Shown here: positions 16,476 through 54,311 of the stretch, one piece after another
How positions within the stretch are numbered: the stretch's first letter is position 1
How the letters are laid out: each line of letters begins with the position of its first letter
Source of the DNA: a virus
Taxonomy: Duplodnaviria; Heunggongvirae; Uroviricota; Caudoviricetes
Virus record (IMG/VR): IMGVR_UViG_2923350032_000003
Strand: one strand, 5' to 3'
DNA length: 55,842 nt
Made by a program: the position numbers and the translations under genes
The notes under the pieces: model-generated
The model's database searches: none
Told to the model about the DNA's origin: nothing
What the model saw: the letters and a program-made list of their open reading frames with translations, nothing else

Positions 16476-16802
16476 ATGACTAAAAATACTCGTTTTTCCC
16501 CCGAAGTCCGTCAGCGGGCGATTCGTATGGTTCTGGAAAGTCAGGATGAATATGACTCACAGTGGGCGGCAATTTGTTCCATTGCCCCAAAGATTGGCTG
16601 TACGCCGGAGACTCTGCGTGTCTGGGTTCGCCAGCATGAGCGGGATACCGGGAGTGGTGATGGTGGACTCACCACCGCTGAACGTCAGCGTCTGAAAGAG
16701 CTGGAACATGAAAATCGTGAACTGCGCCGCAGTAACGATATCCTTCGCCAGGCTTCCGCTTATTTTGCGAAGGCGGAGTTCGACCGCCTCTGGAAAAAAT
16801 AA
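16476..16802 (+). CDS. IS629 transposase OrfA
   Basis: 108 aa, [23 protein letters not shown]..., HTH plus leucine zipper. Confidence 0.85.
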
Positions 16803-17689
16803 TGCCACTGCTGGATAAGCTGCGTGAGCAGTACGGGGTCGGACCGGTATGCAGCGAACTGCATATTGCCCCGTCAACGTATTACCATTGTCAGCAACAG
16901 CGACATCATCCGGATAAACGCAGTGCCCGTGCGCAGCACGATGACTGGCTGAAGAAAGAGATACAGCGCGTATACGATGAAAATCACCAGGTATACGGTG
17001 TGCGTAAAGTCTGGCGTCAGTTGTTACGGGAAGGTATCAGAGTGGCCAGATGTACAGTGGCGCGCCTCATGGCAGTTATGGGACTTGCCGGTGTTCTCCG
17101 GGGTAAAAAGGTCCGCACTACCGTCAGCCGGAAAGCCGTTGCCGCATGCGACCGCGTAAACCGTCAGTTCGTGGCAGAACGTCCAGACCAGTTGTGGGTG
17201 GCTGATTTTACCTGGGTAAGCACATGGCAGGGCTTCGTTTATGTGGCGTTCATCATTGATGTGTTCGCCGGATACATCGTGGGATGGCAGGTCTCATCAT
17301 CCATGGAAACAACATTCGTGCTGGATGCACTGGAGCAGGCGTTGTGGGCCCGTCGGCCGTCCGGCACAATCCATCACAGTGATAAAGGTTCTCAGTATGT
17401 ATCGCTGGCCTACACGCAGCGGCTTAAGGAAGCCGGATTACTGGCATCAACAGGGAGTACTGGCGACTCGTATGACAACGCGATGGCTGAGAGCATCAAT
17501 GGTCTTTACAAAGCGGAGGTAATACACCGTAAGAGCTGGAAAAACCGGACAGAAGTGGAACTGGCCACACTAACGTGGGTGGACTGGTATAACAATCGAC
17601 GATTGCTGGAAAGGCTGGGCCATATTCCTCCGGCAGAAGCAGAAAAAGCTTATTATGCTTCCATCGGAAATAATGATCTGGCAGCCTGA
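16802..17689 (+). CDS. IS629 transposase OrfB (DDE domain)
   Basis: 295 aa with integrase-core motifs. Confidence 0.85.
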   Translation: MPLLDKLREQYGVGPVCSELHIAPSTYYHCQQQRHHPDKRSARAQHDDWLKKEIQRVYDENHQVYGVRKVWRQLLREGIRVARCTVARLMAVMGLAGVLRGKKVRTTVSRKAVAACDRVNRQFVAERPDQLWVADFTWVSTWQGFVYVAFIIDVFAGYIVGWQVSSSMETTFVLDALEQALWARRPSGTIHHSDKGSQYVSLAYTQRLKEAGLLASTGSTGDSYDNAMAESINGLYKAEVIHRKSWKNRTEVELATLTWVDWYNNRRLLERLGHIPPAEAEKAYYASIGNNDLAA

Positions 17690-28516: not shown

Positions 28517-29914
<1,398 letters not shown>

Positions 29915-30390: not shown

Positions 30391-31848
30391 TTAGGAGCGC
30401 CAAAAAAAACCTGAAAACAATATAATAACAGGATAAATTTCAAGGCGACCAAGAATCATAGCTATGCACATTAAATATTTTGCAATGTCATTAAGCACTC
30501 CGAATGACGATGCAGTAGCCCCAAAACCTAATCCCATATTATTAATACATGCAGCCACTGTTGCAAATGATGTAAGAAAATCATATCCCATACCATTTAA
30601 CACCAGTATAAAAAACACCGTGAAGAGAGTATAAAGAAAAAAGAAACTCCATACAGACCTCATTACACGATCTGTAACTATCTTCCCTCCTACATTTACA
30701 CTCAACAACGCTCTGGGATGAGAAAGCTGATTTATCTCGTGTTTGCTTTGTTTGAAAAGTATAAGAAATCGAAGTGACTTAATTCCACCACAGGTTGAAC
30801 CTATACATCCCCCAAAGAAACTTGACAACAGCAAAAACACTATCGTGTGCGTGGGCCAGTTTGCATAATCCTGCGTAGCTAAACCATTATCAGTGAGCAT
30901 GGAGCTGGCAAGAAAAAACGAATGAATAAAACTTCCATGCAAGTCATACATACCTATATGCCAGACCTGGAAAGAGGTAACAATGATCACCCCTAAGGCT
31001 ATTAACAGAAAGAAACGAAGTTCAATATCTCTGATTAAAGGTTTTATCGTTTTTCTGCTAATAACAATATACCAAAGAGTGAAGTTGAAAGCCGATAGCA
31101 GGGAAAAAGAACCAGCCACCAGCTCAACCAAATAGTTATTAAAATATCCGATACTCTCGCTATGAGTTGAGAAACCACCAAGCGAAACTGTGGAAATCCC
31201 GTGACAAATAGCATCAAACAAAGGCATTCCTGCAAGTCTATAACAGACAATACAAGCAATACCTAATAAAGAATAAGTTATCCACAGTGTCCGTGACGTA
31301 TCGGCCAGGCGGGGAGTGAGTTTGTCATCCTTAAATGGCCCCGGCATTTCTGACTGATAAAGCTTTGCACCACCAATACCCAATAATGGCAATACTGCAA
31401 CCGCCAGAACAATAACTCCTAAACCACCTATAAAATTTAACTGTGACCGATAGTACAAATATGCCCGAGGTAATGAACTAACATCATCAATTACAGTTGC
31501 TCCTGTTGTTGTTATTCCAGAAACCCCTTCAAACAGAGCATCAATGAACGTTAAATTAAGTTCTGAGTCAAACCATAAAGGGAATGCACTAATAACAGAA
31601 AACAAAATCCAAAACATTACAATTATAATAAACCCATCACGGGTACGTAATTGAATGCCAGATTTCTTAGTTGTATACCACGCTCCGCCACCAATGCAAA
31701 AAAATATAACGAAAGTTATAAAGAAAACGAACAGGCTTTTTTCTTTATAAAACAATGCTACAACCATTGGTGGCAACATTGAAAGACTATAGAGCCAAAC
31801 CAGGAACCCACACATATGAGTAACAACTCTTACATGAGATGTATTCAT
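30391..31848 (-). CDS. trkG: Potassium uptake protein TrkG (Rac prophage moron)
   Basis: 485 aa from MNTSHVRVVTHMCGF...; multi-pass membrane protein of Trk family. Confidence 0.85.
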   Translation of the reverse strand: MNTSHVRVVTHMCGFLVWLYSLSMLPPMVVALFYKEKSLFVFFITFVIFFCIGGGAWYTTKKSGIQLRTRDGFIIIVMFWILFSVISAFPLWFDSELNLTFIDALFEGVSGITTTGATVIDDVSSLPRAYLYYRSQLNFIGGLGVIVLAVAVLPLLGIGGAKLYQSEMPGPFKDDKLTPRLADTSRTLWITYSLLGIACIVCYRLAGMPLFDAICHGISTVSLGGFSTHSESIGYFNNYLVELVAGSFSLLSAFNFTLWYIVISRKTIKPLIRDIELRFFLLIALGVIIVTSFQVWHIGMYDLHGSFIHSFFLASSMLTDNGLATQDYANWPTHTIVFLLLSSFFGGCIGSTCGGIKSLRFLILFKQSKHEINQLSHPRALLSVNVGGKIVTDRVMRSVWSFFFLYTLFTVFFILVLNGMGYDFLTSFATVAACINNMGLGFGATASSFGVLNDIAKYLMCIAMILGRLEIYPVIILFSGFFWRS

Positions 31849-31985
31849 ATCTAAATATTCTTTCAATTATAACCACCTTGCTGCAATATTATGATTATAC
31901 TGTATAAAATTTAACTCCTCTTAGATCTTACTTCACTGTTCCTTATGAAACAATCATCAAAATGAATCATATTGTAGTTAAGATT

Positions 31986-32450
31986 TTACTTTAAACACTG
32001 TTCGGTTATGTATTGCTGAGCACCTTCAAGTTGGGCCTGCATCATTACCAGTCGTTCCCGGAGGGTGAAATAATCCCGTTCAGCGGTGTCTGCCAGTCTG
32101 GGGGAGACTGCATTATCCACGCTGGAGGTGGCGGTGGCTTCACGCACTGACTGACAGACTGCTTTGATGCGCAACCGACGACGACCAGCGGCAACATCAT
32201 CACGCAGAGCATCATTTTCAGCTTTCGCATCAGCTAACTCCTTCGTGTATTTTGCATCGAGCGCAGCAACATCACGCTGACGCATCTGCATGTCAGTAAT
32301 TGCCGCGTTCGCCAGCTTCAGTTCTCTGGCATTTTTGTCGCGCTGTTCTTTGTAGGCGATGGCGTTATCACGGTAATGATTAACACCCCATGACAGGCAG
32401 ACGACGATGCAGATAACCAGAGCGGAGATAATCGCGGTTACTCTGTTCAT
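31986..32450 (-). CDS. rzpR: Spanin inner-membrane subunit Rz
   Basis: 154 aa from [11 protein letters not shown]...; N-terminal TM helix then coiled coil; start overlaps endolysin stop (ATGA). Confidence 0.75.
32045..32230 (-). CDS. rzoR: Spanin outer-membrane lipoprotein subunit Rz1 (embedded in Rz, +1 frame)
   Basis: 61 aa, lipobox LVVVGC, Pro-rich; entirely inside Rz. Confidence 0.75.
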
Positions 32451-32944
32451 TGCTGACCCCACAAACAGATTTCACGCTCAATCTCACGACGAGTCATGAG
32501 ACCTTTCCATTGCTTACCGCCAGCATATGTCCAGCGACGTAGCTGATCACATGCGCCTTTGATATCGCCCTGGTTTATTTTGCGAAGAAGCGTCGATGTT
32601 CTGAAATTGCCAGCACCCACGTTGTAAACGAATGAGTAAAGAGCGCCGCGCGTTGTTTCCGGTATATCGACTTTGATGTACGGGTTAATTTGTCTGGCGA
32701 CCGTGGCAAGGTCTTTATTCAAGAGTGTTTTGCATTCTGCTTTGGTATACGTTTTACCGAGCATGATGTCTTTTCCTGTATGCCCGTGACATACAGTCCA
32801 TACACCAACAATATCTTTGTATGGTATGTAGCTGACACCTTCCAGACCATCGTTACCACTTGGGCCAGTGATTAACACTGATGCTATAGCAATTGCTCCG
32901 CCACCAATAGCAGCAGCAACGACTTTTCGTAATGATGGAGGCAT
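32447..32944 (-). CDS. SAR endolysin (T4-lysozyme-like muramidase, phage 21 R-type)
   Basis: 165 aa; N-terminal Gly/Ala-rich weakly hydrophobic SAR segment [16 protein letters not shown] followed by lysozyme domain. Confidence 0.8.
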
Positions 32945-33159
32945 TATTCACCTCTCGCAGCCTTGCGCTTATCTTCTTTAATCTTGAAATAAAGGTTTGT
33001 CAGGTACGTCAGTAGGCCAAATACCAGACTACCCAGCACACCGATTGCAGCCCACTGTGACGGAGTTACTCTATCGAGCAACTGTAAAAACCAGTAGCCA
33101 GCACTGCCTGCGGAGGTGCCGTAGGCAATGCCTGTTGAAATTTTGTCCATGGATTTCAT
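32944..33159 (-). CDS. Pinholin (phage 21 S-type) with dual-start motif
   Basis: 71 aa from [14 protein letters not shown]...; Met1 and Met4 dual start; two TM segments. Confidence 0.75.
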
Positions 33160-33257
33160 AGCCTCACCTCCGCACGGAACGGATGGCATAGTTATTATGT
33201 GTAGGCTTTCAGACACATCAATCAGAGCCTTAATTGATATATATGCTGGAGACGATG

Positions 33258-33286
33258 CAATATAAAAAGCTCGCCGTAGCGAGCTA
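33258..33286 (-). terminator. Intrinsic terminator downstream of TolA-like lipoprotein gene
   Basis: AGCTCGC-TACG-GCGAGCT hairpin followed by TTTTTATA on the - strand. Confidence 0.5.
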
Positions 33287-33410
33287 ATAAAATGTATTTC
33301 TCTGATATTATGTTTATTTGTATTAGCTCAGACTTGACATCACAGGTTTCGTATATAGAACATCATCAAATCTGTCAGTTTGCTATGAATGAGATATAGT
33401 AATTGAAGAG

Positions 33411-33806
33411 CTAACCTCGCATGTCAAAGCCAGATTTCTGAAAATCTCTGTAGACTTCCGGATTGTTGAAGGCCGGAAATTTGGCTTTATGAGCTGCGGA
33501 CTTTATCGCTTCGCAATAGGCTTTATCACCGTTACTGGTAGATATTTTTAACGCCGTGCCATCCTGAGAGAATTCCATATGCAACCTGCATTTTTTCCCT
33601 TTCCAGTTATGCGGCTCATCAAGTTTGGCATTAATTGCAGCTCTGATTCCCCGCGCTTGCGCCCCCCATTCATCCTGATCATCCCAGCGTCCTGAACTGC
33701 AACTACCTGTAGCAGTAGTTTTGTGGCAATCTGAAGGGTGTAAAGGTGTGCATCCCGCAACAAAACCGACCCAAAAAGTCAACATAACGATTTTCTTTAA
33801 TCCCAC
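33411..33806 (-). CDS. Lipoprotein with TolA C-terminal (domain III)-like region
   Basis: 131 aa; signal peptide with lipobox VAGC; C-terminal region shares the K-x-C-x-L...C...P..P..VY..FQ pattern with the paralog below. Confidence 0.55.
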   Translation of the reverse strand: MGLKKIVMLTFWVGFVAGCTPLHPSDCHKTTATGSCSSGRWDDQDEWGAQARGIRAAINAKLDEPHNWKGKKCRLHMEFSQDGTALKISTSNGDKAYCEAIKSAAHKAKFPAFNNPEVYRDFQKSGFDMRG

Positions 33807-33956
33807 TTCTTGCTCCTCAATCCATTAAAATCTCAGCAATAGTAGTTGTTACGTCCGCCACTGGCTCAGAGCTGACTATCCGCTAAATTTAGCTCAGTGC
33901 CGTAGCTGTGTCAGAACAAACCTAAGCCGAAACCGTTTATTACAAAACAATAAATA

Positions 33957-34385
33957 TCAGGGTTTAAAATCCAGCACCCCATTTTGAAATACTTTATATA
34001 CTTCCGGCGAAGGGGGGGCAGGTATATCAGCATTCTTTATCGCATTCATCGCTTCACGACATAAATCGAGGTCTCCACTTTCTCTTTTAACCTCCAGTAG
34101 AAGGCCATTCGGGGCCATATGCATTCTCAGTGTACACTCTTTTCCTGAATACTTACTCGCATCCCCGAACTGTTTTTCGATGGCGCTCTTGATTTGATGG
34201 GCATACAGACGGATATCCTCACTAACATCAGAAGTACGTTCAGATGAACTCACATACTGTGTCTCTATTGCTTTATCGGAGTAATATGATGTACGGTCAT
34301 GATAATTTGTCGATACAGCATCAGTGCACCCGATAATAATCCCACTAATAATCAACGTAAGAATTGATGCGCTACGAAAACCCAT
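33957..34385 (-). CDS. Lipoprotein with TolA C-terminal (domain III)-like region
   Basis: 142 aa; lipobox IIGC; C-terminal roughly 80 aa close to the recalled E. coli TolA C-terminus (YAGQIKSAIESKFYDASSYAGKTCTLRIKLAPDG...VYEVFKNAPLDFKP). Confidence 0.65.
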   Translation of the reverse strand: MGFRSASILTLIISGIIIGCTDAVSTNYHDRTSYYSDKAIETQYVSSSERTSDVSEDIRLYAHQIKSAIEKQFGDASKYSGKECTLRMHMAPNGLLLEVKRESGDLDLCREAMNAIKNADIPAPPSPEVYKVFQNGVLDFKP

Positions 34386-34414
34386 TTTTCCTCACATATG
34401 TCATATAGTAAAGG

Positions 34415-34444
34415 ATTATATATACCGTTGTTTTGGACGCTCAA
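34415..34444 (-). promoter_or_regulatory. Sigma70-like promoter for the TolA-like lipoprotein genes
   Basis: On - strand TTGAGC, 18-nt spacer, TATAAT, then GAGG ribosome binding site before the ATG at 34385. Confidence 0.4.
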
Positions 34445-34975
34445 ACAGCGAATCAGATCAAATAAAACGCACATTTGTTAACATTTACACAAAGTCTGCG
34501 TGGGATATTCTGAAAGAATATCCATAATGTGGAGAGAATCTATTGAAGTGCATGGTGCCGGGTGCCTCCCGGTGAACAAAATGTTCGTGATACCTGTCGG
34601 CGACAGAAAAGGTTAATGGTATCACCCCACCGCACAGGGGGATTCACCATGCAGGAGTTTTCTTAGCAAACTCACTGCGCGCCCGGCAACTCCCAACCAC
34701 ATAAAATGCGGAGTTTGTGGTATTTATGCATATAACTCGCAGGAATTATCTTAAAAAACTGATGTCGATCCGGATTAAAAAGAAGCAGGTCATCATCAGA
34801 TGACTGGAAAAAAGGAAAACAAAAAATACTCATCATACAGTTTTGATTGCAGGGATGAGCCTGCTATGCACAATATGCAGAATATAAGCAAGATAAAAAT
34901 ATGCAGGCATATTATTTCGGATTTTGTTATTAACACAACCTTTTTAATAATCATTTGGCATACAATAAACCAGCC

Positions 34976-35429: not shown

Positions 35430-35972
35430 TCAAGCCATTTTCTCAGCAAATGATTCACGCATGGGAATATATAGGGCATACTCAGCAACAGCTAACCAAT
35501 TAGCAATCCGTTTTTCGCATGTGCTAAAACACCACTCTGGGTGTGCATCATTTAGCAATTCAGCCATTTTGCGCTTAGTCATCCCCCGCCCTTCATAGCG
35601 TTGCCGGAGAATGCAAATCAATCCTGGATGCTCTGCCAGCACCTCACTTATGACTCGATCAATACATAACGCCTCTGCATCAGTACAATGCGCCAGCCAG
35701 CTCTTTTGCTTGCCGTTGATCATCTCTCGCAAAAACGCTTCCAGCTCAGCTTTCTCTATTCCCGCTTTTTTCATTCTGCGCAGGGCTTCATTAATGGCTG
35801 TTTTCGTCAGTTTTTTGGATGCCAACAACTGATTGAACATATTCCCTGACCTGCCACCGCCAATATACGACCAGCGCCCCCACATACGTAGTTTTCCCTG
35901 AATCCAGACACTTTCCAGCGTGGTGAGGCGAAGGTGTTCTCCGCTTTTTCCTGTATTCGTTGGGTAAATCAT
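35430..35972 (-). CDS. Late gene antiterminator Q-like protein
   Basis: 180 aa; position immediately upstream of the late terminator and lysis genes; weak recalled family resemblance. Confidence 0.45.
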   Translation of the reverse strand: MIYPTNTGKSGEHLRLTTLESVWIQGKLRMWGRWSYIGGGRSGNMFNQLLASKKLTKTAINEALRRMKKAGIEKAELEAFLREMINGKQKSWLAHCTDAEALCIDRVISEVLAEHPGLICILRQRYEGRGMTKRKMAELLNDAHPEWCFSTCEKRIANWLAVAEYALYIPMRESFAEKMA

Positions 35973-53914: not shown

Positions 53915-54109
53915 ATGAGATATGACAATGTTAAACCATGTCCATTTTGTGGTTGTCCATCAGTAACGGTGAAAGCCATTTCAGGATATTACCGAGCGAA
54001 GTGTAACGGATGCGAATCCCGAACCGGTTATGGTGGAAGTGAAAAAGAAGCACTCGAAAGATGGAATAAACGAACCACTGGAAATAATAATGGAGGTGTT
54101 CATGTATAA
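53915..54109 (+). CDS. ralR: Restriction alleviation protein Lar/RalR
   Basis: 64 aa from MRYDNVKPCPFCGCPSV...; Cys4 zinc-ribbon-like. Confidence 0.8.
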   Translation: MRYDNVKPCPFCGCPSVTVKAISGYYRAKCNGCESRTGYGGSEKEALERWNKRTTGNNNGGVHV

Positions 54110-54311
54110 AATTACCGCCACTATTGAAAAGGAAGGTGGCACTCCTACTAACTGGACAAGATATTCAAAATCTAAACTAACGAAATCAGAATGCGAAAAA
54201 ATGCTCTCAGGTAAAAAAGAAGCAGGCGTTTCCAGAGAGCAGAAAGTAAAACTGATAAATTTTAATTGCGAGAAACTTCAGTCCTCGAGAATTGCATTGT
54301 ATTCAAATTAA
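54102..54311 (+). CDS. ydaC: YdaC
   Basis: 69 aa from MYKITATIEKEGG... Confidence 0.7.
   Translation: MYKITATIEKEGGTPTNWTRYSKSKLTKSECEKMLSGKKEAGVSREQKVKLINFNCEKLQSSRIALYSN

Follow-up and report, generated by a model that had tools for sequence, protein, structure and literature searches.

A Rac-type prophage encodes two predicted lipoproteins with TolA domain III folds: candidate decoys for Tol-dependent colicins and filamentous phages

What use has a prophage for two small lipoproteins built on the C-terminal domain of the host envelope protein TolA? The question is raised by the IMG/VR record IMGVR_UViG_2923350032_000003, a 55,842-nucleotide stretch of caudoviricete DNA (hereafter the window) that corresponds to an intact Rac-type prophage with its integration site adjoining ttcA. 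Two minus-strand genes, which we call A and B, lie in it between the gene in the Q position and the holin. The answer that we favour, with moderate confidence and little beyond that, is that their products are motor-less copies of TolA domain III (TolAIII), tethered to the outer membrane, that act as decoys or competitors against Tol-dependent colicins and filamentous phages.

Gene A (33957..34385, minus strand) encodes a lipoprotein of 142 aa from an ATG start preceded by the Shine-Dalgarno sequence GAGGAAAA. It is composed of a signal peptide (residues 1-19), the predicted lipid-bearing Cys20, a linker (21-52) and a TolAIII-like domain (53-142). Gene B (33411..33806, minus strand) encodes a lipoprotein of 131 aa with the same plan: a signal peptide (1-18), Cys19, a strongly conserved Cys/Trp-rich linker (20-44) and a TolAIII-like domain (45-131). 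Its GTG start, located 6 nt after GAGGAG, is supported by the ATG that the pO157 homologue has at the same position. The signal peptides, MGFRSASILTLIISGIIIG before C20 in A and MGLKKIVMLTFWVGFVAG before C19 in B, are alike in having a basic n-region, a hydrophobic core and a lipobox (IIIG-C20 and FVAG-C19) that matches the pattern [LVI][ASTVI][GAS]C expected after such regions, with Thr at position +2. The lipobox cysteine is invariant across 20 aligned homologues. By their signal sequences A and B are therefore lipoproteins, with predicted lipidation, as the first-pass annotation of this DNA had proposed. Lipoproteins without Asp at +2 are sorted to the outer membrane, and because this residue is Thr in both proteins, both are predicted to reside there.

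The first-pass annotation had also described the 142-residue protein as close to TolA domain III and the 131-residue one as its more divergent paralogue, and both descriptions agree with what we found. In Pfam PF06519, the TolA C-terminal domain (cut-off 25 bits), A scores 82.6 bits (2.4e-23) and B 54.6 bits (1.3e-14). By BLASTP, A is 60% identical to K-12 TolA over 86 aa (TolA 336-421, E 7e-31); the identity of B to the same protein is about 31-34% (34% over 77 aa by BLASTP), and A and B share 29% identity. AlphaFold2 models built from family alignments are confident for both domains (predicted local distance difference test 85-96) and place the secondary structure elements in the order helix, strand, strand, helix, helix, strand, whereas the linker of A is predicted to be disordered and that of B to form a short hairpin of low confidence. 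When these models were compared with the PDB using Foldseek, the best match of A was E. coli TolAIII 2x9a_B (root-mean-square deviation 0.6 Å, template modelling score 0.94) and that of B E. coli TolAIII 3qdp (1.1 Å, 0.92), followed in both cases by the TolAIII domains of Vibrio and Pseudomonas; TonB C-terminal domains were matched only distantly. Structure prediction had been put forward as a test that might refute the TolA likeness, and it recovered the TolAIII fold for both proteins. The disulfide pair of TolA (C363/C388) is also kept, as C84/C109 in A and C73/C98 in B, and is invariant in 20-22 homologues.

The resemblance stops at this domain. A and B match the TolA equivalog models only at their last ~120 positions (about 265-387): with NF007065 both fall below the cut-off of 213 (A 107.8, B 53.7), and with TIGR02794 A reaches 75.6 against a cut-off of 59.45 on its C-terminal domain alone. 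Neither protein has the N-terminal membrane anchor or domain II, and neither gene belongs to a ybgC-tolQRA-tolB-pal-cpoB operon. By sequence and predicted fold, A and B are copies of TolA domain III and not genuine TolA. Because the transmembrane anchor and domain II are both missing, they cannot couple to TolQR.

Might they simply be functionless fragments of a captured tolA in the course of decay? The RefSeq annotation, produced by the Prokaryotic Genome Annotation Pipeline (PGAP), would suggest so, as it labels A 'tolA, incomplete, missing N-terminus' and a pseudogene in ECCHD184 and in many other genomes. The open reading frame of A is nevertheless intact: it has a start codon and a Shine-Dalgarno sequence of its own and encodes a lipoprotein signal peptide. 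The domain of A is modelled with confidence, and A is about 100% conserved in the 774 genomes that carry it. For A-type variants whose protein sequences diverge by 32-35%, the ratio of non-synonymous to synonymous substitution rates (dN/dS) is 0.24-0.36. For B-type genes it is 0.08-0.12, and the linker is the most constrained region of B (0.015-0.10, with synonymous sites saturated). As judged from these ratios, both genes are under purifying selection, which effectively refutes decay; we regard that explanation as very improbable. Since the values for A, B and the B linker all lie well below 1, the pseudogene label is an artefact. It arose because the C-terminal domain alone exceeds the TIGR02794 cut-off in a protein far shorter than TolA. 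The interval annotated as the A pseudogene is 2184660-2184920 in NZ_CP033250.1. For B, PGAP placed the start at an internal ATG, so that the signal peptide loses its basic n-region. Both calls look wrong, and they recur in the RefSeq E. coli genomes that we inspected.

Genuine TolAIII is a docking hub for the N-terminus of TolB. Group A colicins exploit it as parasites, ColN and ColA by direct contact and the E-type through TolB, and so does the N1 domain of the filamentous phage protein g3p. Which of these contacts could A and B still make? In one study, the TolB N-terminus, ColN and g3p-N1 are all described as binding TolA strand beta3, and the substitutions D418P and K420P abolish all three interactions (PMC4339652); the role of beta3 as a ligand interface has also been reviewed (PMC7391070). 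ColA binds the opposite edge of the domain, through L375-P380 together with K368, K379 and K396 (PMC3365938). The beta3 strand (417-421) reads LDFKP in TolA and is identical in A, and it reads FDMRG in B. At the ColA strand (375-380), LLDIKP of TolA corresponds to LLEVKR in A, with conservative changes, and is not conserved in B. A retains two of the three cation-pi lysines (K368, K379, K396) and B none of them. Its sequence makes A a credible binder of the known ligands of TolA.

Both lipoproteins are predicted to sit in the inner leaflet of the outer membrane and to expose, on tethers of 25-32 residues, a free copy of TolAIII in the outer periplasm. If A and B are decoys, this copy, lacking a motor, would capture ligands unproductively at the place where they emerge from porins or pili, and could also compete for the colicin-activated N-terminus of TolB, so that the lysogen would become tolerant to Tol-dependent bacteriocins and Ff-type phages. 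In an experiment of this kind by Levengood-Freyermuth and colleagues in 1993, periplasmic TolAIII reportedly gave tolerance to colicins E1, E2, E3 and A. The dissociation constants given in PMC4339652 are about 1 µM for ColN-TolA and about 40 µM for TolA-TolB. Because the parasites bind TolAIII roughly 40-fold tighter than TolB does, a modest decoy could block invaders with little damage to Tol-Pal. The inference is strengthened by the LDFKP strand kept in A, and by homologues that adjoin a secreted TonB domain on plasmids encoding a Tol-dependent cloacin-type bacteriocin (see below). It also has an experimental precedent, in that TolAIII exported by itself to the periplasm disturbs the Tol system and renders cells leaky (PMC6195910).

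The position of the pair between Q and the holin, also claimed in the first-pass annotation, is borne out by Pfam matches of the flanking genes. The upstream boundary is the Q-position gene (35430..35972, minus strand), a DUF1133 protein (2.5e-107) that barely reaches the Phage_antitermQ family (26.1 bits, cut-off 26); the downstream boundary is a holin of the P21 S type (32944..33216, minus strand; Phage_holin_2_1, 4.5e-35). A survey of other lambdoid prophages for the pair, which had been suggested at the time, returned 35 IMG/VR loci with Q, A, B and holin. Overall, A is present at 99% identity or more in 38 IMG/VR loci, and all of those that include the flanks show Q, A, B and holin in succession. 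The Q gene of the 35 loci is of the DUF1133 type in 28 and of the unrelated PF03589 type in seven, next to the same A-B cassette, and two types of lysozyme are found downstream. With such a mosaic of Q and lysozyme types around an identical pair, A-B is a typical moron cassette. It lies on the same strand in the moron slot between Q and S, as do stx and cspB/F, and it is present or absent among related prophages. In 23 further IMG/VR loci, an A-type variant 65-68% identical to A occurs alone, in the order Q, tRNAs, A-type gene, nanS-p esterase, holin, which is the position of stx in Stx phages.

Among 5,426 complete E. coli genomes, 774 carry the 1.3-kb cassette at 99% identity or more. A single one of the 50,697 GenBank phage records encodes the protein, the prophage-like mEp460_ev081, and BFVD gave no structural match; these two results make the cassette a feature of resident prophages and not of isolated phages. 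The Rac prophage of K-12 lacks the whole stretch from Q to the lysozyme. The loss of this segment from K-12 may explain how the genes escaped genetic study, and it makes that strain a clean background in which to test them.

How would the pair be expressed? An own sigma70-like promoter and a downstream terminator had been proposed. The terminator is clear: between B and the holin (33268..33285, minus strand), the sequence AGCTCGC-TACG-GCGAGC-T run forms a 7-bp stem with five GC pairs and a 4-nt loop, followed by the T-run. The promoter is a consensus match, TTGAGC-18-TATAAT (34415..34444, minus strand; 10/12 positions), situated 30 bases upstream of the Shine-Dalgarno sequence of A. A second, weak promoter-like site in the A-B spacer (33886..33914, minus strand; CTGACA-17-TAAATT, 9/12) is at chance level. 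As the scan returned 11 promoter-like sites against 6.3±2.2 in shuffled sequences, this high background leaves the A-B promoter plausible and not demonstrated. In the alignment of regions upstream of B-type genes, conservation is limited to the ribosome-binding and start region. In the lysogen, A-B would be transcribed from its own promoter and transcription would stop at the terminator before the holin. Once the prophage is induced, polymerase modified by Q would continue through A-B and the lysis genes. Such late read-through is expected from lambdoid biology, since the pair is on the same strand as Q and the lysis genes. That the terminator insulates the holin from A-B transcription speaks in favour of the decoy.

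Directly upstream of A, between it and the Q-like gene, lies a match to the STnc100 family of prophage small RNAs (34496..34682, minus strand; Rfam RF02076), with 86.6 bits against a gathering threshold of 47, an E value of 3e-17 and a folding z-score of -3.25. It ends about 50 nt before the promoter-like site of A. The STnc100 family is related to the PasD small RNAs of the Q-holin region (2026 preprint 10.64898/2026.05.13.724894). A ciprofloxacin-induced 'TolA-like' gene of EDL933 was also considered and set aside: it could not be tied to the family, and the supplement in question lists it as 'tail fiber protein'.

The same gene order invites another explanation, namely that A and B are late-phase antagonists of Tol-Pal, made mostly through Q-dependent read-through once the prophage is induced, which would compete with TolA for TolB, loosen the hold of the outer membrane on the cell wall and raise vesiculation or leakiness. 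They would then aid lysis, particle release or the export of periplasmic cargo instead of protecting the lysogen. The pair is downstream of Q and directly upstream, on the same strand, of the holin and the rest of the lysis cassette (31986..32944, minus strand), made up of a lysozyme (32447-32944; Phage_lysozyme), Rz (31986-32462; Phage_lysis) and the embedded Rz1 (32045-32230; Rz1). The stx slot of Stx phages is transcribed from the late promoter, and the A-type singles occupy exactly this position. In addition, according to PMC6195910, which cites Wan & Baneyx 1998 and Levengood-Freyermuth 1993, an exported fusion of a signal peptide to TolAIII makes the E. coli outer membrane leaky and is employed to this end; a review considers that modulation of the TolB-TolA or TolB-Pal interactions could regulate vesicle production (PMC7391070). 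However, the complete spanin pair already deals with the outer membrane, and related lambdoid prophages manage without A and B. A strong terminator before the holin, together with a promoter-like site before A, is the signature of independent expression in the lysogen, and homologues on non-lytic plasmids and on chromosomes cannot serve lysis. We therefore consider this explanation unlikely.

Those homologues take the family well beyond phages, and the supposed restriction to prophages is not borne out: B-type genes are found on pO157-like plasmids and on the chromosomes of Enterobacter and Serratia. The copy on the pO157-like plasmids, which are virulence plasmids of EHEC, has 87% DNA identity to B and lies beside a truncated nikB relaxase gene. 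In one such plasmid, NZ_CP041624.1 (6003-6434 of the extracted stretch), it is located between the truncated nikB and insertion sequence remnants near toxB. B-type proteins with 78-89% identity occur in Citrobacter, Enterobacter, Serratia, Raoultella and Klebsiella. Short exported forms of the domain are numerous: among the best 150 representatives of 50%-identity clusters, 70 have a length of 100-175 aa, a lipobox is present in no fewer than 43 of these, and several other short representatives have ordinary signal peptides.

Of special interest are the ColRNAI plasmids of Klebsiella pneumoniae. These plasmids of ~10 kb encode a cloacin-type bacteriocin with its immunity and lysis proteins, and adjoining this operon is a gene for a 123-aa lipoprotein (lipobox LLLTA-C) that carries a TolA C-terminal domain and shares 39% identity with A over 92 aa. 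The next gene encodes a 121-aa protein in which a cleavable signal peptide precedes a TonB C-terminal domain. An example of this gene pair is found in NZ_CP028788.2 (4908-5641 of the extracted stretch). When A was searched against PLSDB with tblastn, 660 Klebsiella plasmid records were matched; among the rows that we sampled, the pair with the TonB domain is found on plasmids of 10-27 kb, and larger IncF plasmids have the TolA-like gene alone. The Klebsiella TolA- and TonB-domain genes are merely listed in one survey (PMC10269471), and our full-text literature search found no paper addressing the pair. Freely exported TolA and TonB docking domains, side by side on a bacteriocin plasmid, are hard to explain except as interference with import. 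In the IncF Klebsiella plasmid pCuAs (4229-5258 of the extracted stretch), a gene for a thioredoxin-fold protein immediately precedes the TolA-domain gene; this neighbour may relate to disulfide formation in the TolA domain.

The wide occurrence of B-type genes can also be read in a different manner. A and B, and B in particular, may be accessory envelope proteins with some other periplasmic or outer-membrane partner, and their benefit to the host may be unrelated to the entry of colicins or phages. The TolA/TonB-type C-terminal fold is a general module for beta-strand augmentation, and the short exported TolA-domain proteins are as diverse as they are numerous. B-type proteins are highly similar across five genera and often solitary in ordinary chromosomal surroundings. 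B has not preserved the positions that correspond to the mapped TolA ligand sites, and its linker is under tighter constraint than its domain, suggesting a specific interaction. For A, however, a wholly different partner is unlikely given its closeness to E. coli TolAIII, docking strand included, and the presence of a TonB C-terminal domain as partner on bacteriocin plasmids suggests a connection with the import machinery. On balance we judge another partner to be improbable as an account of the pair.

Several observations nonetheless weigh against a decoy function. B keeps at most two of the nine ColA-site residues, and its beta3 strand retains just the Asp and a basic residue; with both mapped ligand sites diverged, the decoy logic is far weaker for B. 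Genetic evidence implicates one TolA tyrosine in TolB binding (Y352 as numbered in PMC2707214, Y353 as numbered here); in its place A has Gly and B has Asp, which, at the level of sequence, could mean weaker TolB binding or another specificity. Free TolAIII can harm the host through leakiness. PADLOC has no model for A or B and returned no match to them, and the aligned upstream regions of divergent A-type genes show no shared -35 or -10 element, so that the promoter candidate is unconserved among A-type variants. Finally, B-type genes are also solitary on chromosomes, surrounded by non-phage genes or bordering degraded elements, and for those of Enterobacter and Serratia a housekeeping envelope role fits as well as defence.

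A bolder version of the decoy reading includes a division of labour. A would trap TolA-binding ligands, B would use its linker to engage TolB or some other partner, and in combination they would make the cell broadly tolerant of group A colicins with no need for an immunity protein. This would be one case of a general strategy by which mobile elements of Enterobacteriaceae deploy exported, motor-less TolA or TonB docking domains to titrate the bacteriocins and phages that hijack these hubs. We put this extended version forward as a doubtful possibility. The linker of B (33675-33749 in the window, residues 20-44) reads TPLHPSDCHKTTATGSCSSGRWDDQDEWG and is more conserved across genera than the TolA-like domain, which suggests a second binding function. 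It contains two extra cysteines and an acidic W-x5-W motif: C-x8-C is followed by SSGRWDDQDEWG, with the two tryptophans in an acidic stretch. We considered whether this might be a TolB box, to which it bears a loose likeness, and keep the idea as no more than speculation, as Pfam at E≤1 is empty there and the tryptophan spacing is unlike that of the ColE9 box.

How does a tethered TolAIII decoy compare with systems already described? A and B share the Pfam family, the fold and the disulfide cysteines of E. coli TolAIII (PDB 1TOL, 2X9A, 3QDP/3QDR, 1S62), but where TolA has an N-terminal anchor with an SHLS motif and a helical domain II, they have a lipoprotein signal peptide and a short linker. 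The engineered fusion used to make leaky cells, in which TolAIII follows the signal sequence of ribose-binding protein, is likewise a free exported TolAIII devoid of domains I and II. That fusion is artificial, soluble, overexpressed and identical to the TolA of its host, whereas A and B are natural, predicted to be lipid-anchored, diverged and borne by a mobile element.

In function, the closest parallels are entry-blocking lipoproteins and the occupation of TolA by g3p. Small lipoproteins of mobile elements that block a route of entry through the envelope are known in Cor (phi80/N15), Llp (T5) and TraT (F), which protect the cell that carries them; Cor is an accessory gene of lambdoid phages. 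These bind and inactivate a host receptor (FhuA, OmpA), whereas A and B would imitate a receptor domain and titrate the invader. We found no sequence or fold relation between A or B and Cor, Llp or TraT, in line with the absence of a PADLOC match. In Ff exclusion, periplasmic g3p N1 occupies TolA, which confers superinfection resistance and colicin tolerance. The interface between TolAIII and g3p N1 would be the same (PMC7391070), but there the ligand blocks the receptor; A and B would be the mirror image, a spare copy of the receptor that soaks up the ligand. The Klebsiella ColRNAI cloacin-type plasmids also have a homologous short TolA_C lipoprotein on a mobile element, as for A. That gene is plasmid-borne and adjoins a bacteriocin operon, and its partner is a TonB domain, whereas A is paired with a second TolA domain.

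The genes themselves are already annotated, as 'TolA C-terminal domain-containing protein' in RefSeq and as phrog_5772, 'unknown function', in PHROGs, so that any novelty lies in their function and not in their existence. The earlier remark that no described prophage system of this kind was known thus holds for the function and not for the genes. A full-text literature search, outside which most subscription journals fall, found no description of what A and B do; its matches concerned the host tolA or were bare listings of a 'TolA' annotation. Four things appear to be undescribed: that prophages and plasmids naturally encode a lipid-anchored TolAIII, that such genes are systematically placed in the moron slot between Q and the holin, that they come with a second paralogue or, on bacteriocin plasmids, with a TonB domain, and that their products may be read as decoys.

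Should the decoy reading be true, about one in seven sequenced E. coli would carry a prophage-borne tolerance to group A colicins and filamentous phages, one that is independent of immunity proteins and spans a whole class of bacteriocins. This would affect how colicin competition in the gut is read, how colicin and klebicin therapeutics are designed, and phage display and other work with Ff phages in wild strains. It would also add the mimicry of a host receptor domain, as opposed to the masking of a receptor, to the protective cargo of prophages and plasmids, and the TolA and TonB domain pairs on the Klebsiella bacteriocin plasmids suggest a general principle.

The remainder of the window follows a Rac-type layout. 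On the minus strand, intR, xisR, ralR, recT, recE, kilR, sieB, the replication module and a cargo block are followed by hokD, DUF1367, YbcO, the DUF1133 gene, A, B and the holin, then by the lysozyme, Rz/Rz1 and trkG, and last by the terminase and the head and tail genes. The cargo block, about 6 kb of non-phage genes (38734-44990) between the replication module and the hokD/Q region, encodes a major facilitator superfamily transporter, a gamma-glutamylcyclotransferase, a LysR regulator, a DUF2254 protein and a betaine/choline/carnitine transporter; trkG (30391-31866), after the lysis genes, is additional cargo. An insertion sequence of the IS3 family, with two overlapping open reading frames (16476-17689, plus strand) and an ALIL frameshift pseudoknot (16757-16873), lies among the tail genes, and because of it this complete-looking prophage may be defective. 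Further Rfam matches, all on the minus strand, are the RalA antitoxin small RNA of RalR/RalA (54108-54286), isrC (29576-29698) and IS009 (1273-1471).

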